DNA from: a virus
IMG/VR virus record: IMGVR_UViG_3300037010_003043
Span: 6,132-70,131 of that record
Length of the DNA: 64,000 nucleotides
Strand: one strand, 5' to 3'
Of the stretch, positions 1 through 62,028 are shown in pieces. The number at the start of each line of letters is the position of its first letter. Within the stretch, counting starts at the first letter, position 1. Under the pieces are notes generated by a model that made no database searches, had not been told where the DNA came from, and saw only the letters and a program-made list of their open reading frames with translations. Position numbers and translations under genes: made by a program.

Positions 1-103
1 GCTCCTTAATTGCCTTTTCAAAATCAGTTTCAATTACAATCTTTTTTTCAAGTATATTAGATATAGATTCAAGAAGCATATATTCGTCGTAAGTTAAAAT
101 CAT
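1..103 (-). CDS. 5' part of a seventh tandem paralogue (SCM/GYD-tail family), running off the window edge
   Basis: ATG at 103; reads MILTYDEYMLLESISNILEKKIVIETDFEKAIKE, matching the N-termini of the six complete copies. Confidence 0.9.
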   Translation of the reverse strand, partial: MILTYDEYMLLESISNILEKKIVIETDFEKAIKE

Positions 104-156
104 AATTTCTATATTTTATTTATATTTTTTGTTTTTTTATTTTTATCTTTATCGTA

Positions 157-365
157 TCAATCTTCTTCTCTATCATAATCGTATCTTCTATTTCCATATC
201 TATCATATCCATTTTCATCATATCCATCTTGATCATAACCTTCTGAATCATAACCATATTCGTTATGTCCACTTCTATCATATCCATCTCTATCATATCC
301 ATCTCTATCATATCCATCTCTATCATATCCATTACGATCATAACCTTCTTCGTCATATCCTTCTA
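157..365 (-). repeat. 15-bp coding tandem repeat (GYDxx)
   Basis: (tctatcatatccatc)n-like units; boundaries approximate. Confidence 0.9.
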
Positions 366-1314
366 CATCTTCAAATCCACCATTTGCGTTTTCTAATCTA
401 TAAATATCAATAATACCATCCTTTTCTAAAAAAGCAGTTTCTCTATCAGAATGTAAAATAGATTTATTATTATAAATCACTAAATATTTAAAAGTATCCA
501 TATATGGATATTTGAATTTAGGTGCATTTTTTTCATTTATAAATGAAACTTCAACTTGTGCATTAAAATCAAAATTATATTTTTCTTTGAAAAAATCATA
601 TAATTTAAATCTATTTTGTGCTTCTTTAAATAAAGCTAATTGAAGATCATTGTTAATTGCATATCTTCTGTCTAAATATAATCCTTTATTTGTTTTCCAT
701 AACAACGCTCTAGCTATAGTTTTATTTTCTTCATTAGTCTTTAAAAACAATTTAACATTTTCGTTTTTTGCATAAAATTCTAAAAATTTTTGAGTATAAT
801 CACGTGACATACAAGAATCACCTAGTTCTCCAACTTTTATCATATTTTTCGGATTATAATAATACAAAATATCTTCACCTTCAACAAGTTTAAAAGATGG
901 ATCTTCGCCCATTTGAATCATCTTTAAACTATTTGTAAAATCTGCAAGTTCATCAGGCTTTAATCTTAAATTTTTTAATAAAGTTTGTATTAATTTACCA
1001 ATTTTAATTTCTTGTTTAACTTCTTTACCATTAGGTTTCGTTATAATAATCTCTAAAAAACCAGGTTTTTTTGACAAATCAATTGAATTTATATTTTCTA
1101 TTGCTTTATCATCGTCAAGTTCTAAAACCACATCCTCAATATCTCTTTGAATCAATTCAACAATAGAATCAATTATTTTTTTTCTTTTAGGATTTCCTGG
1201 TGATACTTGAAGCTCCTTAATTGCCTTTTCAAAATCAGTTTCAATTACAATCTTTTTTTCAAGTATATTAGATATAGACTCAAGAAGCATATATTCATTG
1301 TAAGTTAAAATCAT
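157..1314 (-). CDS. Tandem paralogue, putative head-packaged protein, about 11 GYDxx repeats
   Basis: 385 aa; core motifs SCMS, ARALLW, YLDRRY, PYMDTF; capsid-targeting-like N-terminus. Confidence 0.85.
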   Translation of the reverse strand: MILTYNEYMLLESISNILEKKIVIETDFEKAIKELQVSPGNPKRKKIIDSIVELIQRDIEDVVLELDDDKAIENINSIDLSKKPGFLEIIITKPNGKEVKQEIKIGKLIQTLLKNLRLKPDELADFTNSLKMIQMGEDPSFKLVEGEDILYYYNPKNMIKVGELGDSCMSRDYTQKFLEFYAKNENVKLFLKTNEENKTIARALLWKTNKGLYLDRRYAINNDLQLALFKEAQNRFKLYDFFKEKYNFDFNAQVEVSFINEKNAPKFKYPYMDTFKYLVIYNNKSILHSDRETAFLEKDGIIDIYRLENANGGFEDVEGYDEEGYDRNGYDRDGYDRDGYDRDGYDRSGHNEYGYDSEGYDQDGYDENGYDRYGNRRYDYDREED

Positions 1315-1354
1315 AATTTTAATTTATTTTTTAACTATCTTTTTTATTTTAATC

Positions 1355-2455
1355 TCAGTCATATTCTTCATCATCATTTTCATCTCTATAATTTCCATCT
1401 CTATCATATCCATCACTATCATAACCTTCCATATCATAACCTTCTCTATCATAACCTTCCATATCATAACCATCTTCATCATAACCTTCATTATCGTATC
1501 CTTCTGTGTCTTTAAATCCTCCTCTTGTATCTTCTAACGTATAAATATCAAAAGCACTATTTTTTTCTAAAAAAGCAGCTTCTTTATTAGAATATAAAAT
1601 AGATTTATTATTATAAATTACTAAATATTTAAAAGTATCCATATATGGGTACTTAAAATTATATGCATTATTTTCATTTATAAACGAAACTTCAACTTGT
1701 GCATCAAAATCAAAATTGTATTTTTCTTTAAAAAAATCATGTAATTTAAATCTATTTTGTACTTCTTTAAATAAAGTTAATTGAAGATCATTGTTAATTG
1801 CATATCTTCTGTCTAAATATAATCCTTTATTTGTTTTCCATAATAACACTCTAGCTATAGTTTTATTTTCTTCATTAGTCTTTAAAAACAATTTAACGTT
1901 TTCATTTTTTGCATAAAATTCTAGAAATTTTTGAGTATTAGGATGCGACATACAAGAATTGCCCAATTCTCCTGTTTTTACCATATTATTTGGATGATAA
2001 TAGTATAAAATATCTTCGCCTTCAACAAGTTTAAAAGATGGATCTTCACCCATTTGAATCATTTTTAAACTATTTGTAAAATCTGCAAGCTCATCAGGTT
2101 TTAATCTTAAATTTTTTAATAAAGTTTGTATTAATTTACCAATTTTAATTTCTTGTTTAACTTCTTTACCATTAGGTTTCGTTATAATAATCTCTAAAAA
2201 ACCAGGCTTTTTTGATAAATCAATTGATTCTATATCACTTATTGATTTATCGTCATCAAGTTCTAAAACTGTAGACTCTATATCTTTTTGAATTAATTCA
2301 ATAATAGAATCAATTATTTTTTTTCTTTTAGGATTTCCTGGTGATACTTGAAGCTCCTTAATTGCCTTTTCAAAATCAGTTTCAATTACAATCCTTTTTT
2401 CAAGTATATTAGATATAGACTCAAGAAGCATATATTCATCGTAAGTTAAAATCAT
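1355..2455 (-). CDS. Tandem paralogue, about 7 GYDxx repeats
   Basis: 366 aa; same core as neighbours. Confidence 0.85.
   Translation of the reverse strand: MILTYDEYMLLESISNILEKRIVIETDFEKAIKELQVSPGNPKRKKIIDSIIELIQKDIESTVLELDDDKSISDIESIDLSKKPGFLEIIITKPNGKEVKQEIKIGKLIQTLLKNLRLKPDELADFTNSLKMIQMGEDPSFKLVEGEDILYYYHPNNMVKTGELGNSCMSHPNTQKFLEFYAKNENVKLFLKTNEENKTIARVLLWKTNKGLYLDRRYAINNDLQLTLFKEVQNRFKLHDFFKEKYNFDFDAQVEVSFINENNAYNFKYPYMDTFKYLVIYNNKSILYSNKEAAFLEKNSAFDIYTLEDTRGGFKDTEGYDNEGYDEDGYDMEGYDREGYDMEGYDSDGYDRDGNYRDENDDEEYD
1385..1505 (-). repeat. 15-bp coding tandem repeat (GYDxx)
   Basis: About 7 units; boundaries approximate. Confidence 0.85.
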
Positions 2456-2470
2456 TGTTTTATATTATTT

Positions 2471-3790
2471 TTAACTATCTTTTTCATTTCCATCTTTATC
2501 GTAACCATCTTCATCGTATCCGTCTTTATCATAACCGTCTCTGTCAAAATCTTCTCTATCATAACCATCTCTATCATAACCATCTCTATCATAACCATCT
2601 CTATCATAACCATTCCAGTTATATCCATCTCTATCATATCCATCTATATCATGACCATCTTCGTTATAACCATCACGATCATAACCACCTAAATCATATC
2701 CATTTTCATCATATCCATCTTCATCAAAACCTTCTCTATCATAACCATCACTATCATAACCAAACATATTATAACCTTCTCTATCATAACCTTCTGCATC
2801 ATAACCTTCTGCATCATAACCTTCATCGTCATATCCTTCTATATCTTCAAATCCACCATTTGTACTTCCTAATATATAAATATTAAAAGCATTCTTTTTT
2901 TCTAAAAAGGCAACTTCTCTATCAGAATGTAAAATAGATTTATTATTATAAATTACTAAATACTTAAAAGTATCCATATATGGGTATTCAAATTTAGATA
3001 TATTTTTTTCATTTATAAATGGAACTTCAACTTGTACATTAAAATGAATATCATCTTTCTCTTTAAAAAAGTCATGTAACTTAAATCTATTTTGTGCTTC
3101 TTTTAATATAGCTAATTGAAGATCATTGTTGATTGCATATCTTCTGTCTAAATACAATCCTTTATTTGTTTTCCATAATAACGCTCTAGCTATAGTTTTA
3201 TTTTCTTCATTAGTCTTTAAAAACAATTTAACATTTTCATTTTTTGCATAAAATTCTAAAAATTTTTGTGTATAATCATGTGACATACAAGAATTACCCA
3301 ATTCTCCAGTTTTTACCATATTCTTTGGATGATAATAATATAAAATATCTTCACCTTCAACAAGTTTAAAAGATGGATCTTCGCCCATTTGAATCATCTT
3401 TAAACTATTTGTAAAATCTGCAAGTTCATCAGGCTTTAATCTTAAATTTTTCAACAGAACTTGTACTAATTTACCAATTTTAATTTCTTGTTTAACTTCT
3501 TTGCCATTAGGTTTAGTTATAATAATCTCTAAGAAACCAGGCTTTTTTGATAAATCAATTGATTCTATATCACTGATTGATTTATCATCATCAAGTTCTA
3601 AAACTGTAGACTCTATATCTTTTTGAATTAATTCAATAATAGAATCAATTATTTTTTTTCTTTTAGGATTTCCTGGTGATACTTGAAGCTCCTTAATTGC
3701 CTTTTCAAAATCAGTTTCAATTACAATCTTTTTTTCAAGTATATTAGATATAGACTCAAGAAGCATATATTCATCGTAAGTTAAAATCAT
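2471..3790 (-). CDS. Tandem paralogue, about 23 GYDxx repeats
   Basis: 439 aa; same core. Confidence 0.85.
   Translation of the reverse strand: MILTYDEYMLLESISNILEKKIVIETDFEKAIKELQVSPGNPKRKKIIDSIIELIQKDIESTVLELDDDKSISDIESIDLSKKPGFLEIIITKPNGKEVKQEIKIGKLVQVLLKNLRLKPDELADFTNSLKMIQMGEDPSFKLVEGEDILYYYHPKNMVKTGELGNSCMSHDYTQKFLEFYAKNENVKLFLKTNEENKTIARALLWKTNKGLYLDRRYAINNDLQLAILKEAQNRFKLHDFFKEKDDIHFNVQVEVPFINEKNISKFEYPYMDTFKYLVIYNNKSILHSDREVAFLEKKNAFNIYILGSTNGGFEDIEGYDDEGYDAEGYDAEGYDREGYNMFGYDSDGYDREGFDEDGYDENGYDLGGYDRDGYNEDGHDIDGYDRDGYNWNGYDRDGYDRDGYDRDGYDREDFDRDGYDKDGYDEDGYDKDGNEKDS
2485..2840 (-). repeat. 15-bp coding tandem repeat (GYDxx)
   Basis: About 23 units; boundaries approximate. Confidence 0.9.
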
Positions 3791-3809
3791 TGTTTTATGT
3801 TATTTTTTT

Positions 3810-3938
3810 TTAACTATCTTTTTTATTTCCATCTTTATCATAATCATATTCGTTGTATCCATTTACTATCATATCCATTTGGATCATATCCATCTCTATT
3901 ATATCCATCTATCTCTATCATAATCATATCTATCATAA
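3810..3938 (-). pseudogene. Frameshifted relic of the GYDxx tail of the 3939..4904 paralogue
   Basis: After the TAG, shifted frames read DSYDRYDYDRD, DGYNRDGYDPNGYDS and NGYNEYDYDKDGNKKDS*. Confidence 0.8.
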
Positions 3939-4904: not shown

Positions 4905-4920
4905 AGTTTTATTTTATTTT

Positions 4921-6255
4921 TTAACTATCTTTTTCATTTCCATCTTGATCATATCCGTCTTTATCATACCCATCTTCATCATAACCATCTTCATTGTAAC
5001 CATCTTCGTCGTAGCCATCTTCGTCATATCCATCTTCATTATATCCATTTTTATCGTAACCCTCTCTATCATATCCATATTCGTCATATCCATCTTCATC
5101 ATATCCATCTTCATCATAACCATCTCTATTATAACCTTCTCTATTATAATCACCTTCATCATAACCATCTCTATCATAACCGTTTCTATCATAACCATCT
5201 TCGTTATAACCATCTTCATCATAACCATATCTATCGTAACCATCGTTATCAAATCCATCTTTATTATATCCATCACCGTCATATCCATCTTCATCGAAAC
5301 CATTAGAATCTTCAAATCCTCCTTTTGTACTTTCTAATGTATAAACGTCAAAAATACCGCTTTTTTCGGAATAAGCAGCATATTTACTAGAATATAAAAT
5401 AGAATCATTATCGGAAATCATTAAATATTTAAAAGTATCCATATATGGGTATTCAAATTTAGGTGCATTTTTTTCACTTATAAATGAAACTTCAACTTGC
5501 AAATCAATATTAGGATCTAATTTTTCTTTAAAAAAATCATGTAATTTAAATCTATTTTGTGCTTCTTTTAGTATTACTAATTGAAGATCATTGTCTATAG
5601 CATATCTTCTATCTAAATATAATCCTTTATTTGTTTTCCATAACAGCGCTCTAGCTATAGTTTTATTTTCTTCATTAGTCTTTAAAAATAATTTAACATT
5701 TTTATTTTCTGCATAAAATTTTAAAAATTTTTGTGTATTATCATATGACATACAAGAATTGCCTAAATTACCTGTTTTTACCATATTCTTTGGATGATAA
5801 TAATACAAAATATCTTCACCTTCAACAAGTTTAAAAGATGGATCTTCACCCATTTGAATCATTTTTAAACTATTTGTAAAATCTGCAAGTTCATCAGGCT
5901 TTAATCTTAAATTTTTCAACAGAATTTGTACTAATTTACCAATTTTAATTTCTTGTTTAACTTCTTTGCCATTAGGTTTAGTTATAATAATTTCTAAAAA
6001 ACCAGGTTTTTTAGATAAATTAATTGAATTTATATTTTCTATTGCCTTATCGTCATTAAGTTCTAAAACTGTAGACTCTATATCTCTTTGAATTAATTCA
6101 ACAATAGAATCAATTATTTTTTTTCTTTTAGGATCACCTGGCGAAATTTGAAGCTCCTTAATTGCTTTTTCAAAATCATCTTCAATTATAATCTTTTTTT
6201 CAAATATATTAAATATAGACTCAAGAAGTGTATATTCGCCATAAGTTAAAATCAT
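4921..6255 (-). CDS. Tandem paralogue, about 24 GYDxx repeats
   Basis: 444 aa; same core. Confidence 0.85.
   Translation of the reverse strand: MILTYGEYTLLESIFNIFEKKIIIEDDFEKAIKELQISPGDPKRKKIIDSIVELIQRDIESTVLELNDDKAIENINSINLSKKPGFLEIIITKPNGKEVKQEIKIGKLVQILLKNLRLKPDELADFTNSLKMIQMGEDPSFKLVEGEDILYYYHPKNMVKTGNLGNSCMSYDNTQKFLKFYAENKNVKLFLKTNEENKTIARALLWKTNKGLYLDRRYAIDNDLQLVILKEAQNRFKLHDFFKEKLDPNIDLQVEVSFISEKNAPKFEYPYMDTFKYLMISDNDSILYSSKYAAYSEKSGIFDVYTLESTKGGFEDSNGFDEDGYDGDGYNKDGFDNDGYDRYGYDEDGYNEDGYDRNGYDRDGYDEGDYNREGYNRDGYDEDGYDEDGYDEYGYDREGYDKNGYNEDGYDEDGYDEDGYNEDGYDEDGYDKDGYDQDGNEKDS
4935..5305 (-). repeat. 15-bp coding tandem repeat (GYDxx)
   Basis: About 24 units; boundaries approximate. 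Confidence 0.9.
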
Positions 6256-6272: not shown

Positions 6273-7547
6273 TTATTGCTTTTTTTTGTTTCCATTTTTA
6301 TCATATCCTTTATAATCATATCCATCTTCGTCATATCCATCTCTATCATACCCATAATCATCATATCCATCTCTATCATATTCATCTCTATCATATCCAT
6401 CAATATCATATCCATCTTTATCATATCCATCTTTATCGTATCCATCTTTATCGTATCCATCTTTATCGTATCCTTTATAATCATATCCATCATCGTCAAA
6501 TCCATCACGATTATGCCCATATTCGTCATAACCATCTCTATCATAACCATCTTTATCATATCCATCAAGATCATAACCATCAGCATCAAAACCATTAGAC
6601 CCTTCAAATCTTCCCTCTGTACTTTCTAATTTATAAATATCATAAGCATAACCTCTTTGTGAATAAGCAACTTCTTTATTAGAATATAAAATAGAATTAT
6701 TATCAAAAATTGTTAAATATTTAAAAGTATCCGTATATGGGTACTTAAATTTAGATGCATTTTTTGCATTTATAAATGAAACTTCAATTTGTAGATCAAC
6801 ATTAGGATCTAATTTTTCTTTAAAAAAATCATATAACTTAAATCTATTTTGTGCTTCTTTTAACATAACCATTTGAAGATTGTTGTCTATAGCATATCTT
6901 CTATCTAAATATAATCCTTTATTTGTTTTCCATAACAACGCTCTAGCTATAGTTTTATTTTCTTCGTTAGTCTTTAAAAACAATTTAACATTTTTATTTT
7001 CTGCATAAAATTCTAGAAATTTTTGTGTATTAAGATGTGACATACAAGAATTACCCAGTTCTCCAGCTTTTACCATATTTTTTGGATGATAATAATATAA
7101 AATATCTTCACCTTCAACAACTTTAAAGGACGGGTCTTCGCCTATTTGAATCATCTTTAAACTATTTGTAAAATCTGCAAGTTCATCAGGTTTTAATCTT
7201 AAATTTTTCAATAAAGTTTGTATCAATTTACCAATCTTAATTTCTTGTTTAACTTCTTTGCCGTTAGGCTTAATTATAATAATTTCTAAAAAACCTGGTT
7301 TTTTAGATAAATTAATTGAATTTATATTTTCTATTGCCTTGTCATCATCAAGTTCTAAAACTGCAGATTCTATATCTCTTTGAATCAATTCAACAATAGA
7401 ATCAATTATTTTTTTTCTTTTAGGATCACCAGGTGAAACTTGAAGCTCCTTGATTGCTTTTTCAAAATCAGCTTCAATTGCAATCTTTTTTTCGAGTATA
7501 TTAGATATAGATTCAAGAAGCATATATTCGTCGTAAGTTAAAATCAT
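6273..7547 (-). CDS. Tandem paralogue (first of the array), about 20 GYDxx repeats
   Basis: 424 aa; same core, with PYTDT in place of PYMDT. Confidence 0.85.
   Translation of the reverse strand: MILTYDEYMLLESISNILEKKIAIEADFEKAIKELQVSPGDPKRKKIIDSIVELIQRDIESAVLELDDDKAIENINSINLSKKPGFLEIIIIKPNGKEVKQEIKIGKLIQTLLKNLRLKPDELADFTNSLKMIQIGEDPSFKVVEGEDILYYYHPKNMVKAGELGNSCMSHLNTQKFLEFYAENKNVKLFLKTNEENKTIARALLWKTNKGLYLDRRYAIDNNLQMVMLKEAQNRFKLYDFFKEKLDPNVDLQIEVSFINAKNASKFKYPYTDTFKYLTIFDNNSILYSNKEVAYSQRGYAYDIYKLESTEGRFEGSNGFDADGYDLDGYDKDGYDRDGYDEYGHNRDGFDDDGYDYKGYDKDGYDKDGYDKDGYDKDGYDIDGYDRDEYDRDGYDDYGYDRDGYDEDGYDYKGYDKNGNKKKQ
6290..6595 (-). repeat. 15-bp coding tandem repeat (GYDxx)
   Basis: About 20 units; boundaries approximate. 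Confidence 0.9.
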
Positions 7548-7702
7548 AATTTTATTTTATTTTTCATTTTTTTGTTTATTTTTTCAATAAAATCATAAAT
7601 TTTATCATCTTTTGCAGGTTCGATGACTCTTTTAGGAGGTTCATAGTTCGAAATTTCAGTTTTTGAATCTACAAATTCTTTAAAATTTTTTAAATCTTCC
7701 AT
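7544..7702 (-). CDS. Small protein (52 aa) absent from the ORF track; possible internal head protein
   Basis: MEDLKNFKEFVDSKTEISNYEPPKRVIEPAKDDKIYDFIEKINKKMKNKIKL; GGAG upstream; ATGA overlap with the first array gene. Confidence 0.7.
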   Translation of the reverse strand: MEDLKNFKEFVDSKTEISNYEPPKRVIEPAKDDKIYDFIEKINKKMKNKIKL

Positions 7703-7784
7703 TTTTAACTCCAATTTTCTATACTTCTTCGTATATTAAAATACAAAATTCAATATATTTTTAAACCTTATTTTTCCATATTTT

Positions 7785-8648
7785 TTACAAATTTTCAGGT
7801 ATCTCTAAATTAAATTCAATTAATTTAGATTTTATATTTTCTTTTATAGTTTCAATTTTCTTTTTAAATTCAAAATTTTTTGAATTTATTATATTAAGAC
7901 ATTTTTCAAACGTAGAAACATCTTCAATTTTTATATTTTTTCCAAATACCATTTCAACAAATTCTTGTGGATTTGACGTTACTATTCTTTTTGAACTTTC
8001 TAAAATAATTGATTTTTTAAGAACACCATTTTTACCTTCAAATGTTTTACTTACAACGCCTACGCCTTCACTGTGACTGTAATAATACTTTTGATATTCT
8101 TTAACTTTTTCATTTGTATCAAAATATGAAATTATTTTTCTATCTAACGACTCAACTAAAGCATGAAAAACTGCTTCTCTATATTTTGAAGTATACTCAG
8201 ATTCATTTTTTCTTAAATTTGGAGAATAACGTGAAAACTTAATCCATTCTAAATTCTCTACTAATTCTAAATGAATATCTACATTATTTTGTTTTTTAAA
8301 ATTTCCATTTATTGGAAATTTAAATATAAACTTATTGTTTTCTTTTACAACTTTTATATTAATTCTTTTAAATTGCAATTGTATAAATTTTTCTAAATCT
8401 TCTAATTCAAGATTATTTTCTTTTAAAACATTATTTAAATCAACAGCGACATTTATATTATTACTTAAATCTTCTGCTAATTTTTTCTTACCAGCAGATC
8501 CTATAAATGCAACATCATTTTCCGTTAATCTTAAAAGATTTAATATATTTTCTATTAATATTTTTTGAGTCTTTGGTACATCTTTTTGTTTAATCCCATT
8601 TGATATACTCAAAGACTCGTTTAAAAATTCAATATATGATTTTAACAT
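7785..8648 (-). CDS. Phage Pol-beta-superfamily nucleotidyltransferase-like protein, apparently inactive
   Basis: IGSAGKK motif followed by SNNINVAVD where GDID is expected; downstream W-x-KF...SP...S-x-Y pattern; N-terminal SYIEFLNES. Confidence 0.55.
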   Translation of the reverse strand: MLKSYIEFLNESLSISNGIKQKDVPKTQKILIENILNLLRLTENDVAFIGSAGKKKLAEDLSNNINVAVDLNNVLKENNLELEDLEKFIQLQFKRINIKVVKENNKFIFKFPINGNFKKQNNVDIHLELVENLEWIKFSRYSPNLRKNESEYTSKYREAVFHALVESLDRKIISYFDTNEKVKEYQKYYYSHSEGVGVVSKTFEGKNGVLKKSIILESSKRIVTSNPQEFVEMVFGKNIKIEDVSTFEKCLNIINSKNFEFKKKIETIKENIKSKLIEFNLEIPENL

Positions 8649-8674
8649 CTTATTGTTTATTTTGTCTTAAAGAA

Positions 8675-9070
8675 CTATTCTTCATCCATCAGTTTTTTAA
8701 ATTCTTCTTTTTTTTCTTTAGCTTTTTCTTCTTTTTGTTTTTCTTTTTCCTCATCTGATAAAGTTGCAGGATTTTGTTTTATTAAATCATTTTCTTTAGC
8801 TTTTTTAATTTTATCAGCAATTTTAGGATCTTTAAAATTACCTGTATCTTTATTCCAGTTATCTTTTAACCAATTAAAAAATTCAGTTTTATCATCTTTT
8901 GACAAATCACCAGGAGATTCTGCACCATATTTAGCTAATCCAAAAAGCATTAAATCTTGGTATCTTTTTTGTTTATCTGACAATTCCTTTTTTCCATCGT
9001 CGTCTTCCTCGAAAATTTCACCATAATAATTTTCGATAAGAAATTCATCATATGTTTTAAATTTTTTCAT
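8675..9070 (-). CDS. Putative internal head protein
   Basis: N-terminus KTYDEFLIE resembles T4 capsid-targeting sequence MKTYQEFIAE; YQ...KYG...SP..L....K.EFF.....W pattern recalled from T4-like phage proteins. Confidence 0.6.
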   Translation of the reverse strand: MKKFKTYDEFLIENYYGEIFEEDDDGKKELSDKQKRYQDLMLFGLAKYGAESPGDLSKDDKTEFFNWLKDNWNKDTGNFKDPKIADKIKKAKENDLIKQNPATLSDEEKEKQKEEKAKEKKEEFKKLMDEE

Positions 9071-52127: not shown

Positions 52128-53051
52128 ATGTGCACAATTGTAGCAGCAACTCAAAATAATAAACATTTTTTATTTAAAAATAGAGACAAAAAAAATTATG
52201 GAACATTAAAAATAAAGCATGAAATAGTTAAAAATGTTGAAATTGCTTATTTAACTGATCAAACAGGCTGGGTAGAAGGTATGAACGAATTTGGTATTGG
52301 ATTTATTTTTGCTTATTTAGAAAAAAAGGATTTTTCTAACGAAATGTATAAAATGGACTGGACTGTTACAGAAACACCCAAAACTCATATAAATAAAAAT
52401 TATAAATCTAAAATAGAAGATTTTAAAAAAATATTAACTTCTAAAACGTTAGAAGAAGCTAAAAATGTTATAATATCAAATAAATGGAATGGTAATTATT
52501 TTGTATCAGATAGTGAAAAAACATATGAAATAGAATGTTTTTTAGGTGAAATAAAATATCAAGAAGTAACATTTGATAAATTTATAAAATATAAAGTTAA
52601 AACAAATCATGGTATTTTAATACCTAACGCAGGCCATAAAAAAAATAGTCAATCTGTTGCTAGAGCTTCAACTGAAATAAGAAAACTGCAAGCTGAACAA
52701 CAATTAATGGGATTTAAAAATTTTTCCGATTTGATTCAAAGAATGGGCCAACAAACATACGATCAAAGAAGTTCATTAAATATGTTTAGAACAGATGATT
52801 ATGAAAGAACAGTAAGCCAAATGTTATTAAATTTAGATCAAAAAATATTAAATGTAATTATATATGAAGAAAACTCTGATTTTTTTGGTATAGAAAAACA
52901 AATACCCGAAAATAGAAATCCTAAAATCAAAATTATTATTAGAAAAAAGGAAGAATTTGAAAAAGATGAATTTTTAAACTTTAAAATGAAAGAAGAAGAT
53001 TTATTTTTTCAATGGAAAAATTTAAAACATTCAAAAGGTGAAAATTTTTAA
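52128..53051 (+). CDS. Ntn-hydrolase (N-terminal Cys; C45/choloylglycine hydrolase-like)
   Basis: M-C-T start, KNRD, GW.EGMNE.GI, TNHG. Confidence 0.75.
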   Translation: MCTIVAATQNNKHFLFKNRDKKNYGTLKIKHEIVKNVEIAYLTDQTGWVEGMNEFGIGFIFAYLEKKDFSNEMYKMDWTVTETPKTHINKNYKSKIEDFKKILTSKTLEEAKNVIISNKWNGNYFVSDSEKTYEIECFLGEIKYQEVTFDKFIKYKVKTNHGILIPNAGHKKNSQSVARASTEIRKLQAEQQLMGFKNFSDLIQRMGQQTYDQRSSLNMFRTDDYERTVSQMLLNLDQKILNVIIYEENSDFFGIEKQIPENRNPKIKIIIRKKEEFEKDEFLNFKMKEEDLFFQWKNLKHSKGENF

Positions 53052-54511: not shown

Positions 54512-55534
54512 TTATTTATTTATGTTTAAAATTCGTTTAATAGCATCAGCGATTTCATTTTCATTTTTTAATTCCATAAATTCATCACCTAAAAAACCAT
54601 CAGAAGATTCTAAACTAAAGATAAATGAATCATCATATCCAAAAATTTTCTTTGCTTCTACAGAATTTAAAATTGCTACTAATTTTAATGGAGTTCCTTT
54701 AATAGATGTATAAACGTAAATTGATGTAGCGTTAGGTTTTCTATCAGTAAAATAATCTAATAACACTCCAGTTTTTTGTCCAGCTAAATTTATAGCAGCA
54801 TCTGAAATTTTCCAAATCATTTCTAAATCCTTTTGATAATTTGCATATGTTGAATAAATAGATTGTCCAAGTTCAATATTAACAGAAGCAACTTTTATTG
54901 CCTCGCCTTCAATTAAATTATCTTCTGACTCTAAAACTTTATCGATATTTCCTTTAGGAACTGGTAATATAACTAACTCAGTTTTATTAATAAATTCTAA
55001 AAGAATATAAATATAAGAACCTATTTTTTCTAATAAATAATTTAAATATTCTGTAAAAATTGCTTTACCTTCCGGTGATAATTTATCTTCTTCGTTTTCA
55101 AAAAACATATTTTCAATCGAACTAGAAGCTTGATAAGCATCTTCTTTAGAAGCTCCTAAATAAATCATCATTTTATTACAATCATTCAATAAAGTTCCTT
55201 CGACTATTTCAAATATATCTACTGAAGATGCTTCAACTATTACCTTTAATTTAGATAACAATTCAGAATTATTTCTAGCTAAAATAGCATTTTGATATAT
55301 TCTTGTCAAATAAGACAATCTTGCAGAATTAATTTTATAATCCTTGGCATATTTTTTAATTAAATCGTAATCTAACCAAAGAATATCAGAATTTGATGCT
55401 TGAATTTCAAATTCATTATTTTTTAAAATAGCACTAACTTTATGAAAACCTGGAATATCAAATATATCATAATTTAATTTTTCTAATAAATTTTGATATT
55501 CTTTAAGTTCATCAACATTTTTAACATAATTCAT
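54512..55534 (-). CDS. Hypothetical protein, possibly head-packaged
   Basis: 340 aa; N-terminal LKEYQNLLE; AATATATAAA at 55566..55575 upstream. Confidence 0.6.
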   Translation of the reverse strand: MNYVKNVDELKEYQNLLEKLNYDIFDIPGFHKVSAILKNNEFEIQASNSDILWLDYDLIKKYAKDYKINSARLSYLTRIYQNAILARNNSELLSKLKVIVEASSVDIFEIVEGTLLNDCNKMMIYLGASKEDAYQASSSIENMFFENEEDKLSPEGKAIFTEYLNYLLEKIGSYIYILLEFINKTELVILPVPKGNIDKVLESEDNLIEGEAIKVASVNIELGQSIYSTYANYQKDLEMIWKISDAAINLAGQKTGVLLDYFTDRKPNATSIYVYTSIKGTPLKLVAILNSVEAKKIFGYDDSFIFSLESSDGFLGDEFMELKNENEIADAIKRILNINK

Positions 55535-55688: not shown

Positions 55689-56225
55689 TTATTTTTCATC
55701 TTCCTTTTTTTTACCCTTTTTTAATTCTTTCATATGTTTTTCAAATTCAGCTAAAGCAGCTTTCATAGCTAAATTTTTTGCTTCAGCTGCCATTTCAGTA
55801 GCTTTTAAAGTTAATTTATCACTAGCTGCCGCAGCTGCTAACATTTGTTGTTCTATTGTATCTGCTCTTAATTGAGCATTAGCAACTTGTATTGCAGAAC
55901 TTGCTGTAAATGTCGCTATACTAGGATTATTTGGATCGTCGTTTGTCATTTTATCAATAACTTTATCAACTTCAGTTTGCATCATAAGTGCTTTATATTG
56001 AGCATTATATAATTCTTTTGCTAATCCATTAACAATAGCTTCTTTAGATAATTGCGATTTATCAATTGTTTTTTCACCAGTTTTTTTATCTTTTTCTGGA
56101 TATATAGTAACTTTATCTTCTTTTGAATCAGAAAAATCAGAACTTGTGTCTATAGTAATTTTACCTTTTTTTGAATTAGAATCTTCAAAAACATTTATAA
56201 ATTCATTAAAATTTAATATTTTCAT
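55689..56225 (-). CDS. Putative internal head protein
   Basis: MKILNFNEFINVFE leader; Ala-rich coiled coil; late-promoter-like motif upstream. Confidence 0.55.
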   Translation of the reverse strand: MKILNFNEFINVFEDSNSKKGKITIDTSSDFSDSKEDKVTIYPEKDKKTGEKTIDKSQLSKEAIVNGLAKELYNAQYKALMMQTEVDKVIDKMTNDDPNNPSIATFTASSAIQVANAQLRADTIEQQMLAAAAASDKLTLKATEMAAEAKNLAMKAALAEFEKHMKELKKGKKKEDEK

Positions 56226-56327: not shown

Positions 56328-56543
56328 TTATTTCTCTACTTTTTCTTTAGATTTTTTAAAAGTTTTTGCAATTTCTACTGATTTCTTTTTATAATCAGTA
56401 ATTATTTTTTTTAATTGATTAATCGCACCTCTTGCACGAACACCTGCTGCAGCATTAGATTTTTCTACAAATTTTTCATGTTCAGTTTTAAAAGTTTCAA
56501 TCAACTCTGTCATTTCATCGTAAAGATTATTAAAATCTTTCAT
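56328..56543 (-). CDS. Histone H1-like (Hc1-family) nucleoid protein
   Basis: KFVEKSNAAAGVRARGAINQLKKIITDYKKKSVE matches the N-x-AAG-x-RAR pattern of Hc1-type proteins. Confidence 0.75.
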   Translation of the reverse strand: MKDFNNLYDEMTELIETFKTEHEKFVEKSNAAAGVRARGAINQLKKIITDYKKKSVEIAKTFKKSKEKVEK

Positions 56544-56609: not shown

Positions 56610-56921
56610 TTATTTTTGTTTTTGTTCTTTTTTATTCTTTTTTTGTTCTTTTAGTTTAATTTTTAATTCTTTTTTTTCTTCTATAAGATTTTTTAAAATT
56701 AATTCATCAGCGGGTGTTTTTTTGTAATTAATGTAAAATTCAAACATTCCTGATATAGGATTGTTTATAGCAACTAATTTAAAATGATTTGACACTTCAT
56801 TTATTTCTTTAATTTCAGATTCTGACATATAAGCAACTTGTTGTTTCGAATCTGCATTTTTTGAAATATAAATTTTATAACCTTTTTCTTTTTCTATTTT
56901 AAATGCATCGTTTATAATCAT
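56610..56921 (-). CDS. Hypothetical protein
   Basis: 103 aa, Lys-rich C-terminus; start overlaps the upstream stop. Confidence 0.55.
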   Translation of the reverse strand: MIINDAFKIEKEKGYKIYISKNADSKQQVAYMSESEIKEINEVSNHFKLVAINNPISGMFEFYINYKKTPADELILKNLIEEKKELKIKLKEQKKNKKEQKQK

Positions 56922-58264
56922 AAATTTGCCTCTTTTAGTTTATCTTTTAAAAAATTACTTATTGTTCCTAAAATTTTTAATTCTGATAGCAAACCAAAAT
57001 TACCTTTAAATCTTATTCGAATATCCGCTAATTGATTATCGTCTAAAAACAATCCAACTTTTATTGACGATGTGTTATCTTTAATTTTATCGACATCTTC
57101 AACATTATCATCTAATTCAACATTTAAAAATTTTATATCTAATTTACTTTTATTTATTTTATTTAAAAATTCAAAAATTGTTCTATATTTTATTATATTA
57201 CCTATTTTTATTTTTTCATTAGTAGTATTATAACTTGTTAACAATATAAAATCAAAATCAAATCCTTTTTTACTAAAATCTTCAGCCGCTATTTTTATTT
57301 TAAATATAGCATTATATATTGTTTCTAAAAAAGAAATTTTTATATTTTCATCTTCAAATACTTTAAATAATTTATCATAAAATATATTTTTTTTATTACT
57401 TAATGCTTTATTTATTAATATTCTAATTAATGAAACTATATAATAATTACTATCTTTATTAGGTTTTTTAAAAAACTTATTTAATTCATCTTTTTTATTA
57501 CTAAATTTATCTTCAAATTCTTTTTTATAATCTATAGGAAATATTACTTTTTTACCTTTTTCGGTAAAGAAATATTTAAAATTATTTATTTTATTAGATT
57601 CTGGTAATATTGTTTTTAAATAATCTATTATTTCTTTAGTTTCTTGTTCAAAAAACTCCAACATAATATTTTGTAAATCATCTTTAACATCCTTTGTTAA
57701 TATTTTTGAAAAACTTTGATTTATAGCTGTAGGATCTACTGATAATTCATGAGGTTTTATTTTTAAAGATATACCAAGAAATTTATTTTCAGAATATTCG
57801 ATAACCAAATCAGATGAATTATAATTTTTTCCGCCTATTTTGTCTAAACCAAACTCTTTTAATCTTGTAGGCCAAATTCTACCCGTTCTCCAAATATTAA
57901 TAAAATTTTTATTTTTATATTCGTCCTTTAAATATTTTTCGATTGCTTTAGCTGCAGAAAAAGCAGCAATTATCGAAGATTCTTTTTTAAGAAGCTCATC
58001 GCTATCACCTTTTTGATATAACATTGTATCGGTTTGAGATTTTAGTAATTCAATAATTTCTTTAATTTCTTTTATTTTAAAAGCATCAAAGTTTTTTTGT
58101 TTTACTTCAAATGGAAGTTTATCTGGTATTTTAGATTTTTTATAATATAGTAATATAGCTCCAGTTAAACCCTCTATTACTTCTCCTGCAGAAATCATTT
58201 CTTCTTCCAATTTATTGTTATTGTTAGATTTTTCAATTAAAAACTTTTTGAACGAAAGTAACAC
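56918..58264 (-). CDS. Putative PD-(D/E)xK-variant nuclease with capsid-targeting-like leader
   Basis: YNSSDLV...FLGISLK...PTAIN, IRFKG; N-terminus LSFKKFLIE. Confidence 0.5.
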   Translation of the reverse strand: MLLSFKKFLIEKSNNNNKLEEEMISAGEVIEGLTGAILLYYKKSKIPDKLPFEVKQKNFDAFKIKEIKEIIELLKSQTDTMLYQKGDSDELLKKESSIIAAFSAAKAIEKYLKDEYKNKNFINIWRTGRIWPTRLKEFGLDKIGGKNYNSSDLVIEYSENKFLGISLKIKPHELSVDPTAINQSFSKILTKDVKDDLQNIMLEFFEQETKEIIDYLKTILPESNKINNFKYFFTEKGKKVIFPIDYKKEFEDKFSNKKDELNKFFKKPNKDSNYYIVSLIRILINKALSNKKNIFYDKLFKVFEDENIKISFLETIYNAIFKIKIAAEDFSKKGFDFDFILLTSYNTTNEKIKIGNIIKYRTIFEFLNKINKSKLDIKFLNVELDDNVEDVDKIKDNTSSIKVGLFLDDNQLADIRIRFKGNFGLLSELKILGTISNFLKDKLKEANL

Positions 58265-58331
58265 ATTTTTTTTTATTTTATATATTATATTTTAAAATTG
58301 TTTAAAAACAAAAGGAAGTATAAATCTTCTT

Positions 58332-58454
58332 TTAAAAAAAATCTATTTCAAAATCTGAATTTGAAGTAAAATTTAGTAATAATTGTTTCATATCATCTTT
58401 TAATTGACCAATAAATAATTTCTTTCTGTATTTACATATAAATATTAAATATTT
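58332..58454 (-). pseudogene. tnpA: Relic of an IS200/IS605-family Y1 transposase (N-terminal fragment)
   Basis: Frame reads KYLIFICKYRKKLFIGQLKDDMKQLLLNFTSNSDFEIDFF*; no start; stops before the HUH motif. Confidence 0.7.
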
Positions 58455-60142
58455 TTTACGTATTTAAAATTTCCAGGTGTTTCAACTCTTAAATAATTTA
58501 GTTCTTCCATTATTTGTCTTTCAGTTTTATTTTCATCAAATCCTTTTTTAATTAAATTAGATTTTGTAAACTTAAATCTATTGAAAACCTCACCATCTTT
58601 AAAATAAAAATATCCTTTGTATATTTTATTCATTTTTTGAAAACCTAATTTTTCATATAAAGAACCATTTGATATTAAAATGTCAGAATAAGAAATTATT
58701 TTATCAATATTGTATTTTTTTATAAAATTACTTAATAATCTACTTGCTGCACCCGGTATTGAATAATTTTTTAAAATAGCAAAACGATTTATTTCCCAAT
58801 CAGAATTATTTTTAAACATTACTCTGCCTTTAGAAAATGTCATAACAGCGAAAATTTTATTATTAAGAGTTAATGTTATTGATTTTTGATATTTAGCAAA
58901 TCCTTGTAAATGATTTTCGTTTAAAAAGTTTTTTATATCTTCATATTTAGGATTAAAATCTACTTCTAGTTTTCTTGCAAATAATCTATTCATTTTAAAA
59001 TTAAGTTTATTTTTTATCATAGATTTTATTAATTCTGTTTTATTAAATAAATCATTTTGCCAAAAAAACATTAATTCGTAATTTGAAAATTTTTCTTTAA
59101 TTATTTTAAAATCGTTAAAATTAAGGTAAGGCATAAAAACAAACATATATTGTTTATTTTTATCATATACTGCTAAAATTAATGTAAAATTATCACTAAT
59201 AACAGAAATAAATTTATTAAAATTATTTTCTAAATCATAAAAAAGTGTATAAATTGATTTTACTTCAAATATAAATTTTTCATTTTTTAAGTATAAATCT
59301 GGTCTATATAAATGTTGCTTTTCATTTATTGTATATTCAAAAATAGGACAATTCCATTCAGTTGCTATATTTTCAAAATTTTCATTATTATTTTTTAAAT
59401 CGTCTAATAATTTATTACCGTAACCTTGATATAAAATTTTATTATTTTTATCCCATTGATAAAATTTTGAATTTTTAGAACTTTTTACCATTTTTTCATA
59501 AATTTCTGGTACAGAATATGGATTTTTGTTTCCGTATTTTTCTAACATTGTATTTTCAAATTTTTCTCTAATTTCTGGACATTGAAAAGAATTTCTAACA
59601 CCATATTTTTTAATCATAGTGTTGGCTAATTTTTCTTTTACTTCTGGATTTTTCATCCAATGGTTATAACCTGTTTTTTCTTTATAGTTATTTTTTCTTT
59701 TTTCTATAACTTCAGGAATTTTACTATTATAAGGCGTATCTATACCATATTTTTTAATATTACCTTGTCTAAATTTTTCTTTATATAAATTTCTATATTC
59801 ATTTTTTTTATCATCACTTAACGAAAGCCACCAATTTTTAGCAATTTTTGATTTGTTTTTATTTAAGCATTTTATTGAACAATATTTTTTAGGTCTTTTT
59901 GTTATTTTTATTAATTTACCACACTCTAAACATATTAATGGATTTTTTACATCTAATTTTGCATATAAATATTTTTCATCATAAGATAAATCAATATTGA
60001 AATTTTTGCAATGTTCTTCGATATACTCTTGTGCTTCCTTGTTATTTTTTATAAAGTAATAAATTTTAGCATTAATAGATTGTTTACTTGAATTTGAATT
60101 TTCTTTATAAAAATTTTCAATGATGGTTTGTAATTTATTCAT
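58445..60142 (-). CDS. Free-standing homing-endonuclease-like protein (Zn finger, KYG repeats, PD-(D/E)xK, Hef-like/GNAT-like C-terminus)
   Basis: CLECG..YCSIKC; T..KKYGV.N repeats; YRPDLY...FEVKS; FARK..FLNENHLQG..INRFA..GAASRLL..ISYSD..LYEKLGF. Confidence 0.75.
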   Translation of the reverse strand: MNKLQTIIENFYKENSNSSKQSINAKIYYFIKNNKEAQEYIEEHCKNFNIDLSYDEKYLYAKLDVKNPLICLECGKLIKITKRPKKYCSIKCLNKNKSKIAKNWWLSLSDDKKNEYRNLYKEKFRQGNIKKYGIDTPYNSKIPEVIEKRKNNYKEKTGYNHWMKNPEVKEKLANTMIKKYGVRNSFQCPEIREKFENTMLEKYGNKNPYSVPEIYEKMVKSSKNSKFYQWDKNNKILYQGYGNKLLDDLKNNNENFENIATEWNCPIFEYTINEKQHLYRPDLYLKNEKFIFEVKSIYTLFYDLENNFNKFISVISDNFTLILAVYDKNKQYMFVFMPYLNFNDFKIIKEKFSNYELMFFWQNDLFNKTELIKSMIKNKLNFKMNRLFARKLEVDFNPKYEDIKNFLNENHLQGFAKYQKSITLTLNNKIFAVMTFSKGRVMFKNNSDWEINRFAILKNYSIPGAASRLLSNFIKKYNIDKIISYSDILISNGSLYEKLGFQKMNKIYKGYFYFKDGEVFNRFKFTKSNLIKKGFDENKTERQIMEELNYLRVETPGNFKYVKNI

Positions 60143-60212
60143 TATAACCTTATAATTTTATATTTTATATATTATATTAACTCAATGTTTTGCTTTTATG
60201 AAAAATATAAAT

Positions 60213-60240
60213 AAAAAAAAACCTCCCATTGGGGAGGTTT
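60213..60240 (-). terminator. Intrinsic terminator after the major capsid gene
   Basis: aaacctccc-attg-gggaggttt stem with a long U-run on the minus strand. Confidence 0.85.
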
Positions 60241-60264
60241 ATAAGAATTATATTTAACTATCTA

Positions 60265-62028
60265 TTAGAAAATAGTTGTAACATTTCCTGTATGAACATA
60301 AAATGTGTAATATTGTGTTTGTGGCCATTGACCAGCCTCTACTAATGCATATCTTGATTTAACAGCAATTTTTGGAGCCATTGTACCTTCTGCGATAGTT
60401 TGAATAGATTCAGCCATTAAATAAGGCATAAATTTTAAACCAGGTTCTTGATCCTCACCTTTTCTACCTACCAAAATTCTATTATCAGTATATGTCATAT
60501 TAGGATCAACATATATTGTCATACCAGCTAAAGTTCCAATTGGATATAAAGAGCCGTTTGATTGATTAATTGTATTTTGCATTGGTGCAAAAGTGAATTG
60601 AGCAGAATCTTGTAAAGCAGTTGCTAATTGTAAATTTGTAACTGCAAAATTAGCAGGACCACGTCTACCTCTTTGAGCAATAATATTACCTGCCGCAATT
60701 AATTTAGATTGAATCCTACGTTGAATAGTATGCATATTCTCAAAGCTTCCAAAATCAGCGAATGGATTTACAGGAATTCTTTCAGTAAATCCAACTTTAT
60801 TTAAATAATAAGGAGATTGTAAAGCATTAACTTGTGTATGGTCAACTGTAAAGTTTAATGTTGCACCTTCAACTTTTAAAAATTCTGCATTATTTGTCCA
60901 ACCTAATGCAAAAGCTCTTGATAAAATATGTTTATTTATAGCTTGACTAATTTCATTAACTAAAGCATTTTCAATCATACTTACAACATCTAAACCAAAT
61001 TGCTTATTTAAATCTTGAATTTGTTCAGTTGTTACTGTTGCACTTACTTGATAAGTTTCAGCTTCAATAAATTTAGTATAAGCTTGAATATTCATTGGTC
61101 TATAGTAAGTAGATTCTCCTGTACCTCTTCCCATTGGAGTCATTGGAGTAGCACCATCAGTAAATGGACCTGTCCAATTATCTTGATCATAAGTACCAGC
61201 TCCAGAATAGCCTTGAATATGATCTTCTAACCCTCTTACTAAACCTGCTTTAGCTGTACAAGCAATACTATTTGTAGTTGCTAATGATGCATAAACAATA
61301 GGTTTTCCATTATTATCAGTAGTAATTATTGCATCTGTATCAAATATTTCAGAAATTGCAATCGATTCATCAACTGTCCAATTTGAATTATCAGCAGCTG
61401 CAGTATATGTATTACCAATTCTAAAAATTGGATAACCAGTAATTCTTGAGTAACCAATAAATAACATTTCAATTACTTTTTTATCAGCATTTGCAGATGT
61501 ACTAACACCCCAATATTTTGTACCAACTGTGTATTTATTTGAATTAATATTATCTACATCAACTGAAATTACTAAAGGTTGTTCGGTAGTTCCAGGTTTT
61601 CCACCGCCATAAACATAATCTAAATATGTTAATACGCCTGTTGGACCTGGCATAGGAATTACAGATACTATATCAAATCCTACAGTTCTTGCAGCAACTT
61701 GAATTGCTAAAGGTAATAATGAAGGGAATTTATCACCAGAACCAGTTGTGCCAGTATAAAATGACGCAGGACCACCAGGAGCGGCACCAGGTCTTACAGC
61801 ACCCATACCTGGAACATTACCTAAAGTTGCTGCCGTTCCATAAGCAAAAGATTCATTTAATGTATTAGAGTTATCATACATAGCATGATTATGACAATAT
61901 TCAGCCAACCATTGTTCTTTACCAGAGTTTACAAGACCAAAGGTATTTTTTAATTTTTCAGCGGGTATTTGCTGTTCTAACAGTCCATACCATTCACTTA
62001 AAACATTCTCATTTAAATAATTTTTCAT
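60265..62028 (-). CDS. gp23: Major capsid protein, T4 gp23-like
   Basis: V.VIPM.GPTG, T.EQIQDL....GLD....I.N.L..EI...IN..I, RRG.ANF, G.L.G...YVDP, PK..VKSRYAL. Confidence 0.95.
   Translation of the reverse strand: MKNYLNENVLSEWYGLLEQQIPAEKLKNTFGLVNSGKEQWLAEYCHNHAMYDNSNTLNESFAYGTAATLGNVPGMGAVRPGAAPGGPASFYTGTTGSGDKFPSLLPLAIQVAARTVGFDIVSVIPMPGPTGVLTYLDYVYGGGKPGTTEQPLVISVDVDNINSNKYTVGTKYWGVSTSANADKKVIEMLFIGYSRITGYPIFRIGNTYTAAADNSNWTVDESIAISEIFDTDAIITTDNNGKPIVYASLATTNSIACTAKAGLVRGLEDHIQGYSGAGTYDQDNWTGPFTDGATPMTPMGRGTGESTYYRPMNIQAYTKFIEAETYQVSATVTTEQIQDLNKQFGLDVVSMIENALVNEISQAINKHILSRAFALGWTNNAEFLKVEGATLNFTVDHTQVNALQSPYYLNKVGFTERIPVNPFADFGSFENMHTIQRRIQSKLIAAGNIIAQRGRRGPANFAVTNLQLATALQDSAQFTFAPMQNTINQSNGSLYPIGTLAGMTIYVDPNMTYTDNRILVGRKGEDQEPGLKFMPYLMAESIQTIAEGTMAPKIAVKSRYALVEAGQWPQTQYYTFYVHTGNVTTIF

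Follow-up and report, generated by a model that had tools for sequence, protein, structure and literature searches.

In a window of 64,000 nucleotides (bases 6132-70131 of one 70,131-base virus record, IMGVR_UViG_3300037010_003043, analysed as a whole), a set of otherwise unrelated proteins starts with a short N-terminal leader that is best read, with a probability of roughly three in four, as a capsid-targeting and protease-processing tag of the phage T4 type. The motif, its enrichment at N-termini, its modularity, a prohead protease and matching sites in the head proteins are all present. For the function of the tag, we infer core binding, cleavage, retention in the head and injection. Specifically, the tag (Met plus two to five residues, then an aromatic pair at a spacing of three that encloses an acidic or basic residue, then an aliphatic residue and, within a few residues, [LIVM]-x-Glu) would bind the assembling scaffold core, and the tagged protein would be enclosed as the gp23-type shell forms. 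A gp21-type protease, fused to the scaffold, would cut after the Glu, as it would also trim the capsid propeptide and shred the scaffold, and the mature protein would stay in the head and most likely exit with the DNA at infection. Retention and injection, rather than a role in assembly, are likely for the variable, enzyme-like members and less likely for the protein encoded at 55689-56225. Read in this way, the leader is the known T4 capsid targeting sequence (CTS) system in a new, distant phage lineage, from which it differs in scale and in the nature of the cargo.

The leader motif is built as aromatic-x-acidic-aromatic-aliphatic, followed by [LIVM]-x-E (Table 1). The aromatic pair and the site lie in the cores SYIEFLNE↓S, TYDEFLIE↓N, SFKKFLIE↓K, NFNEFINVFE↓D and TYDEYMLLE↓S (the arrow marks the predicted cut); Phe or Tyr stands at i and i+3 in these five families and in the small protein 7544-7702, and the sites that end the leader in the five firm families are LLE, LNE, LIE, VFE and LIE. 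For reference, IPII and IPIII, translated from the T4 record, start with MKTYQEFIAE↓A, and IPI starts with MKTFKEFTSTTTPVSTITE↓A, i.e. MKTFKEF...ITE↓A. In the account of the T4 CTS in PMC9026906, residues 4 and 7 chiefly drive targeting and residues 8 and 10 processing; these positions correspond to the aromatic pair and to I-x-E, and a matching pair and [LI]-x-E are found in the window leaders. According to PMC9026906, an Asp in place of residue 10 prevents processing in T4. In the window proteins the mature N-termini are predicted at S13 or K20 (array), S12 (7785-8648), N14 (8675-9070), D15 (55689-56225), K12 (56918-58264) and S60 (capsid protein). No similarity was detected among the cargo families beyond the leader. 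Moreover, in both folded cargo models the N-termini are of low confidence (predicted local distance difference test, pLDDT, below 50 at residues 1-44 of the array protein and 1-22 of 56918-58264), with confident cores behind them.

The N-termini quoted in the original prediction, a reading of the same DNA that had proposed a T4-like leader on about 14 cargo proteins, all exist on the minus strand at the starts assigned to them. The size of the set was trimmed: eleven genes of five families are firm members, one gene (7544-7702) is intermediate, and two, 10024-10650 with its MNLNEA start and 54512-55534, are weak. Seven of the firm genes form an array, six complete tandem genes and one partial, with the consensus start MILTY(D/N/G)EY(M/T)L(L/F)ES. 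The intermediate gene is best started at ATG 7702, with GGAG upstream, the longest reading frame beginning at TTG 7714. In 54512-55534 the aromatic pair at the right spacing is absent, and ..KEYQNLLE↓K resembles distant array leaders (..SSYYQALLE↓K); in 10024-10650 the DxDxT motif follows almost directly after the start, which leaves a propeptide MNLNE↓A of only five residues, and the aromatic core is absent. A homologue of the latter in LR756500, a 462-kb metagenomic phage, starts MELLE↓M, and another LR756500 PNK (polynucleotide kinase) phosphatase has a full leader. For both weak candidates a tag is possible, not established.

Table 1. Leader-bearing genes, head genes and upstream-motif sites of the window (window coordinates unless stated; aa, amino acids; arrow, predicted cut)
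Feature	Position	Strand	Leader or start	Remark
Array copy 7, first 34 residues	1-103 (body upstream, contig 4939-6234)	-	MILTYDEYMLLE↓S	
Array copy, 385 aa	157-1314	-	MILTYNEYMLLE↓SISNILE↓K	predicted GNAT-like core, 11 G(Y/F/H)(D/N) units
Array copy, 366 aa	1355-2455	-	as in 157-1314	7 repeat units
Array copy, 439 aa	2471-3790	-	as in 157-1314	folded copy; 22 repeat units, tail net charge -38
Array copy, 321 aa	3939-4904	-	MILTYDEYMLFE↓S	repeat tail absent
Array copy, 444 aa	4921-6255	-	MILTYGEYTLLE↓S	variant leader; 23 repeat units
Array copy, 424 aa	6273-7547	-	MILTYDEYMLLE↓S	19 repeat units
Small protein, 52 aa from ATG 7702	7544-7702	-	MEDLKNFKEFVDSKTE... (MEDLKNFKEF)	IPI-like aromatic core
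Nucleotidyltransferase-like protein, 287 aa	7785-8648	-	MLKSYIEFLNE↓S; start MLKSYIEFLNES at 8648	
K/E-rich protein, 131 aa	8675-9070	-	MKKFKTYDEFLIE↓N; start MKKFKTYDEFLIEN at 9070	contig's best LR756500-matrix match
HAD / PNK-3'-phosphatase-like protein	10024-10650	-	MNLNE↓A; GTG start at 10650	weak candidate
Acidic protein, 340 aa	54512-55534	-	MNYVKNVDELKEYQNLLE↓K; start MNYVKNVDELKEYQNLLEK at 55534	weak candidate
Head-module protein, 178 aa	55689-56225	-	MKILNFNEFINVFE↓D; start MKILNFNEFINVFED at 56225	Ala-rich helical C-terminus
Predicted restriction-endonuclease-fold protein, 448 aa	56918-58264	-	MLLSFKKFLIE↓K; start MLLSFKKFLIEK at 58264 (GTG)	
gp23-type major capsid protein	60265-62028	-		PF07068 Gp23, 136 bits
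gp21-type (S77) prohead protease (about residues 1-235) fused to scaffold-like part	62050-63855	-		601 aa; directly upstream of capsid gene
ATATATAAA sites	60172, 58285, 56602, 56252, 55574, 40954, 32013, 24682, 10697	-		

For the tests on the window, the seven array paralogues were collapsed to one, which gives 61 open reading frames (ORFs; 67 uncollapsed). An unbiased scan, run on all 5-residue patterns of a 7-class alphabet, set the first 16 residues against the remainder; aromatic-x-acidic-aromatic-aliphatic came out at the top of 2072 patterns, with 6 of its 19 occurrences N-terminal and 0.70 expected (P=4.4e-5), and this is the pattern predicted a priori from T4. A loose definition derived from T4, with an F/Y pair at i, i+3 and an [LIVM]-x-E within 12 residues, was not selective enough and gave way to a strict one, aromatic-x-[DE]-aromatic-[LIVM] in the first 20 residues, which is found at 6/61 N-termini. 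A comparison with shuffled N-termini, the kind of control that the original prediction had named for its check, came out in its favour: 0.32 matches are expected from shuffled N-termini and 0.39 from interior windows, and 0/2000 trials reach 6 with either control. One of the six matches, in the tail tube protein 15780-16355 (YNDFI, YNDFIFKF), is probably due to chance, as the x-E site is absent and the LR756500 orthologue lacks the pattern; with this single exception the replication, tail and lysis genes are devoid of the leader, as had been claimed.

Moreover, an independent matrix, built from 24 LR756500 leaders alone and scanned across 21,861 contig positions, gives its two highest scores to the N-termini of 8675-9070 (19.7) and 7785-8648 (18.0), in this order. 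With 6.2 to 7.6, the array leaders fall behind because of their extra residue. The third-best match is internal: MEKNEFLTYSQFVNE↓S lies at about residue 163 of a 301-aa ORF (contig 1723-2628, minus strand) with a Met before it, and may represent a second gene start or a protease-cut junction of two modules. An artefact of a proteome rich in F, Y, E, L and I, compounded by array paralogy, would draw on the frequency of [LI]-x-E alone (1.5% of positions), on the matches of the loose definition (1.4% of interior positions and 7/227 interior Met) and on the seven array copies being one event. It is countered by the collapsed counts, which 0/2000 controls reach, by the two top ranks obtained with a matrix trained on another phage and by the conservation of the leader in homologues of three cargo families, and chance, already disfavoured, is a highly improbable source of the set.

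The protease and the head proteins bear the same signature. The protease-scaffold protein matches PF03420 Peptidase_S77 with 50.7 bits (cut-off 27) and PHROG 207 with an E-value of 3e-40, and in the protease domains of the contig, of LR756500 and of the related IMG/VR contig G001, GELxHP, SSR and a downstream Asp column, which we take to be catalytic, align with T4 gp21. ILE-12 of the contig protease aligns with LIE-9 of T4 gp21, a site that fits the cleavage logo given in PMC9026906. In the scaffold part, 17 [LI]-x-E sites were counted where 5.5 are expected (P=6e-5); the counts are 18 for an expected 4.5 in G001 and 13 for an expected 6.2 in LR756500. In the capsid protein, residues 1-59 hold five [LI]-x-E sites, as compared with three over the remaining 528 residues; LLE-18 pairs with LLE-18 of T4 gp23 in the alignment, and LNE-59↓S sits where T4 has LTE-65↓A, presumably the Glu65 at which gp23 is matured. 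The L-N-E sites ascribed to the two proteins are present as described, LNE-7 and LNE-59 in the capsid and six [LI]NE in the protease-scaffold. The residue after the cut (P1') is Ser in the capsid site, the array leaders, the 7785 leader and five scaffold sites.

The nearest capsid proteins among GenBank phages are those of LR756500 (45% identity) and of the Lak megaphages (about 42%), and two IMG/VR contigs, G001 and G002 (about 100 kb each), are nearer still at 66% and about one third complete by CheckV. Because its capsid relatives are of this kind, the window is read as a fragment, possibly a quarter, of an uncultured jumbo-type myophage with a T4-type head. In LR756500 the strict pattern stands on 27/687 N-termini, with 4.0 expected by shuffling and 0/2000 shuffles reaching 27; 24 of the 27 fit MK(Y/F)Ixx(Y/F)x(E/D)F(L/I/V/M), in most cases followed by x-E↓(A/N/S), and a looser, Met-anchored form marks 37/687 genes as compared with 15/1700 interior Met (p=2e-10). 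The tagged LR756500 genes are clustered, and the cluster at 264-269 kb, just upstream of the UvsW helicase gene, occupies the syntenic slot of the window array and genes 7544 to 9070. A Pfam scan of 36 tagged LR756500 proteins returned six leucine-rich-repeat proteins, one ATP-grasp, one PNK-3'-phosphatase/HAD and one DUF5661 protein, one sub-threshold match and 26 proteins with no Pfam family.

BLAST of the contig proteins against LR756500 and G001 found the replication, tail and head genes syntenic and no match for the array, 7785, 8675, 54512 and 56918; the array protein has no match in G002 either. Conversely, two tagged proteins are conserved in G001 together with their leader, 7544-7702 (43% identity, homologue starting MKNLISYEEFKGNKSE) and 55689-56225 (28% identity, homologue starting MLKQHILDYEIFRLLE↓D). 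For 56918-58264, an exhaustive HMMER search yielded homologues in 113 cluster representatives, and a word-index search only 2 proteins. Of the cluster representatives, 91 are 370 residues or longer: 14 of them have the strict leader (MKRFKEFIIE↓S, MKSFKQYILE↓S, MKRFKTFLFE↓N, MLLSFKEFLTE↓K), 58 are leaderless and 19 have other starts, several of them leader-like; the leaderless ones (MAYEASEIMTA...) begin where window residue 25 or so aligns, with residues 1-24 or so absent from most. When 7785-8648 is aligned with nine homologues (30-69% identity), [LIVF]-(N/D)-E stands in the same column in 9/10 rows. Array orthologues at 35-43% identity have an aromatic-rich leader of 20 residues that ends in LLE↓(K/N), and since this end aligns with the second site, NILE↓K, of the window copies, the array propeptide probably has two predicted cut sites. 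Three array homologues (P0017, P0019 and P0020, 56-68% identity in alignment A1) start leaderless, on contigs of 2.1-2.4 kb in which the starts may be mis-called. As judged from these alignments, the leader is a portable module on unrelated proteins, and the claim of a T4-like leader shared by unrelated proteins stands on the protease, the capsid and scaffold sites, the T4 spacing, the modularity and the recurrence in relatives.

Several observations weigh against this reading. In the leader itself, the first aromatic is at residue 5-7, compared with 4 in T4, in the array leader an additional residue precedes the Glu, and 7544-7702 has no [LI]-x-E site. In the statistics, Bonferroni correction over the 2072 patterns raises the unbiased scan, taken alone, to about 0.09, and the Met-anchored looser pattern is enriched only modestly in the window (6/61 genes vs 6/208 interior Met, p=0.03). 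In the relatives, the strict pattern is not enriched in G001 (1/118, with 0.5-1.4 expected) and the looser one weakly so (5/118 vs 5/505, p=0.025; one of the five, a HAD N-terminus, is probably false), although leader-like starts are discerned by eye in G001, some from an internal Met: MNYLISFEEYKYVISE, MDYLINFSEYKNQKLNE, MKNLISYEEFKGNKSE, MKHLQEYDNYINE, MLKQHILDYEIFRLLE and MKYVLNINDFYKLYE. Lak-A1 (42% capsid identity) is unenriched as well (2/618 vs 3.2 expected), and for this reason the leader is not universal across the capsid clade. The array tails have a strong negative charge (net -12 to -43), unlike the T4 internal proteins, which PMC9026906 describes as basic. T4 itself does not pass the same enrichment test (3/275 vs 1.09 expected, 170/2000 shuffles reaching 3), so that the test is blind where cargo is sparse and says little there. 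As a positive control, the T4 scan recovers IPII, IPIII and gp61.1, and IPI with the loose form only. It also brought up an observation on T4, namely that gp61.1 (54 aa, NC_000866 18966-19130, annotated as hypothetical) starts MKTFKEFIKE, a full CTS-like leader in addition to those of the three known internal proteins.

A different role for the shared N-terminus, be it a feature of translation initiation or mRNA in very AT-rich genes, a signal for degradation or for localisation that has nothing to do with the capsid, or a handle for cassette recombination, could account for the AT-rich codons of all leader residues (F, Y, K, N, I, E, D, L) in a genome of about 23% G+C, and for array leader DNA that is slightly better conserved (93% identity in the first 60 nt vs 88% in nt 61-900). 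Such a role is improbable in the light of the shuffles, which keep composition and give 0.32 matches against 6, and of the leader-end motif, in which the capsid propeptide and the scaffold of this phage are rich as well. Moreover, substitutions keep the residue class (Y/F, E/D, L/I/V/M) and not the nucleotides, and the spacing to the ATG is not fixed (3 to 6 residues), which points to selection on the peptide.

The functional labels that the original prediction had put on the cargo largely hold, for a dead nucleotidyltransferase (G-S, N-x-N), a HAD phosphatase (PF11019) and a nuclease-like protein with a restriction-endonuclease fold, the last by model. The array protein model (mean pLDDT 72) matches GNAT-type acyltransferases at residues 132-243 in most of the VIA-align matches listed, the best with a Z of 8.9 over 90 residues at a root-mean-square deviation (rmsd) of 2.6, covering about the first two thirds of the fold, and the Foldseek matches of the same model include many proteins from uncultured marine phages that are uncharacterised (E down to 9e-13). 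The core is predicted to adopt a GNAT-like fold in which acetyl-CoA binding is putative. The C-terminus consists of 0-23 (D/N)-G-(Y/F)-(D/N)-x pentapeptide units, one copy being tail-less, and the repeat tail is modelled at a pLDDT of about 80-86. A search with one array copy returned 668 proteins at E<=0.001, many of which match the repeat only (26-31% of the query) and are otherwise unrelated.

In 7785-8648, G50 and S51 are kept, and N64-x-N66 is present in 9/10 aligned rows, the most distant homologue (P0244) having D-L-D; the protein lacks the [DE]-h-[DE]-h metal-binding carboxylates of pol-beta-type nucleotidyltransferases. Its Atlas look-alikes, NTP_transf_2 and SMODS (0.90-0.92), are a lead only. 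"Dead nucleotidyltransferase", i.e. related to the family with the catalytic residues absent, seems a fair description of it. The 56918-58264 model (pLDDT 76.7, predicted template modelling score 0.79) aligns in VIA-align with HinP1I (Z 7.6, 210 residues, rmsd 4.5) and MspI (Z 6.5), Z values that are middling, and mostly with PD-(D/E)xK nucleases among the further matches listed; Foldseek with this model found nothing at E<=0.001. The family keeps D152 and S166-L-K168 invariant, and HinP1I and MspI are not known to have the second acid either. The model suggests that the protein folds like a restriction endonuclease, a predicted nuclease fold. In 10024-10650, IFDIDDTLIF at residues 13-22 contains DxDx(T/V), PF11019 scores 25.1 bits (cut-off 22.6) and PHROG 415 (polynucleotide kinase) has an E of 5e-7. 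No match to PHROGs or Pfam was obtained for the array, 7785, 8675, 55689 and 7544; 54512 has one sub-threshold Pfam row (Rotavirus_VP7), and 56918-58264 matches only PHROG 3060, of unknown function. NCBIfam returned sub-threshold rows only for the cargo, sequence searches of the PDB with the cargo nothing meaningful, and Pfam over the 35 members of alignment A2 scattered noise only.

The leader could be real while most tagged proteins are accessories of the core or scaffold that are degraded or expelled in maturation, rather than injected cargo. The protein 55689-56225 would suit this explanation, lying in the head module with an Ala-rich helical C-terminus and being conserved with its leader in G001, and the very acidic array tails would be more akin to acidic core fragments than to basic, DNA-bound internal proteins. 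The T4 core proteins gp67, gp68 and gp22 are indeed cut by gp21, as reported in PMC5694885. Conversely, the other tagged proteins are non-conserved and enzyme- or binder-like (dead nucleotidyltransferase, nuclease fold, GNAT-like fold, the leucine-rich-repeat proteins of LR756500), their genes sit in variable clusters as those of T-even internal proteins do, unlike scaffold parts, and outside the leader they show none of the [LI]-x-E enrichment of the scaffold. Degradation or expulsion of most of the set is an unlikely account, to be taken more seriously than the two preceding ones. The "injected proteome" of the original prediction is an extrapolation all the same, and 55689-56225 looks more like a conserved head-core protein. 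With regard to the preferred reading, a T4-type targeting and processing leader, a wider proposal is that an AT-rich jumbo-phage lineage has made the ten-residue T4 address label a general loading system for a large, fast-turning-over arsenal; with the tag on about one gene in six of the contig, this is tentative and somewhat short of an even bet.

The window has a G+C content of 20-27%, and its minus strand carries nearly all genes. PHROGs and Pfam recognise a UvsW-type helicase, a primase, a gp32-like single-strand-binding protein, a RuvC-like resolvase, a long tail/baseplate block, a CHAP endolysin and the gp23-type major capsid protein. The window phage and LR756500 (687 ORFs in the standard code) need no recoding; in Lak-A1 (MK250016.1, 541,643 bases), reading TAG as Gln lifts ORF coverage from 0.66 to 0.91, in agreement with the known recoding of Lak phages. 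The sole plus-strand gene of any length, 52128-53051, has a G001 homologue at 41% identity and no family match; its product starts MCTIVAA..., and the Cys at residue 2 is reminiscent of N-terminal-nucleophile hydrolases. Within the baseplate block, 41019-42173 (minus strand) encodes an S1 RNA-binding domain protein (PF00575, 50 bits) that is kept in LR756500. Between the capsid gene and 56918-58264 lies a 565-aa HNH/homing-endonuclease-like gene (58445-60142, minus strand; PHROG 3339, DUF7487) with at least five paralogues in LR756500. In the head module, flanked by two tagged genes, 56328-56543 (minus strand) encodes a 71-aa Hc1-type histone-like protein (PF07432, 55 bits) that may be a DNA-condensing virion protein; it was tried as a tagged protein (MKDFNNLYDEMTELIE) and rejected, as its Pfam Hc1 domain begins at residue 5 and it has no leader.

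A motif upstream of genes connects part of the tagged set with the structural genes. ATATATAAA occurs 10 times on the minus strand, and nine of the occurrences lie 12-59 nt upstream of minus-strand starts, the 80-nt zone before starts making up 7.25% of the window. The genes behind it are three tail/baseplate genes, the HNH gene, the Hc1-like gene, 56918, 55689, 54512 and the HAD gene, where it lies 47 nt upstream, within the 3' end of the helicase gene. The array and genes 7544 to 9070, which are closely packed, are without it. The motif looks like a candidate promoter common to structural and some tagged genes, which fits co-expression with head assembly. TATAAATA, which we take to be the T4 late promoter, is not enriched upstream of starts in the window (4/27 sites).

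T4 internal proteins are first-response anti-defence factors, with IPI blocking GmrSD and IPIII needed on E. coli ECOR17, according to PMC3012670 and bioRxiv 10.1101/2022.04.14.488369. With a leader recognisable in the sequence, one could draw up the set of proteins that an uncultivated giant phage brings into its host cell, most of which belong to no family and offer no further hint of their role, and the content of huge-phage heads would become testable by a protease-plus-reporter assay. If the wider proposal is true, the leader alone would reveal which first-strike and counter-defence proteins uncultivated phages inject, and the tandem array would work as a gene-dosage "accordion" on a packaged effector. 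In the full-text literature open to search (subscription-only papers lying outside it), no capsid targeting sequence was found linked to metagenomic, huge or mega-phages, apart from the phiKZ/SPN3US work on long propeptides and T4 reviews.

The closest known system is the T4 CTS of IPI, IPII and IPIII, removed by the prohead protease gp21 (Mullaney and Black 1996, as cited in PMC9026906 and PMC5694885). The window leaders share with it an N-terminal propeptide of 10-20 residues that ends in [LI]-x-E, with aromatics three apart and an acidic residue between them (Y-Q-E-F in T4; Y-I-E-F, Y-D-E-F, F-N-E-F and Y-D-E-Y here), and in both systems the tag sits on unrelated, poorly conserved proteins in variable clusters, accompanied by an S77 protease, a scaffold in which these sites abound and a gp23-type capsid with a (here predicted) cleavable N-terminus. 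In contrast to T4, in which the P1' residue is Ala, it is often Ser, Asn or Lys here, protease and scaffold form one polypeptide in a system known from genes alone, the tagged share is far larger (11-12/67 ORFs here and at least 24/687 in LR756500, as compared with 4/275 in T4), and a seven-copy tandem family with acidic repeat tails is found in place of small basic cargo. T4 Alt, an ADP-ribosyltransferase with a 6-residue propeptide cut at ITE-6 (PMC5694885), may set a precedent for MNLNE↓A in the HAD phosphatase, although chance alone would place a 3-residue motif near the start of a few proteins in about 60. In phiKZ and SPN3US, many head-internal proteins are cut after Glu by a gp21-related protease (gp175 and gp245, respectively), the propeptides have redundant cleavage sites and paralogues share identical N-termini, as PMC5694885 reports. 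The phiKZ-like propeptides are mostly longer than 100 residues with the motif (S/A/G)-x-E, whereas the window leaders are short and T4-like and the protease matches Pfam S77 directly.

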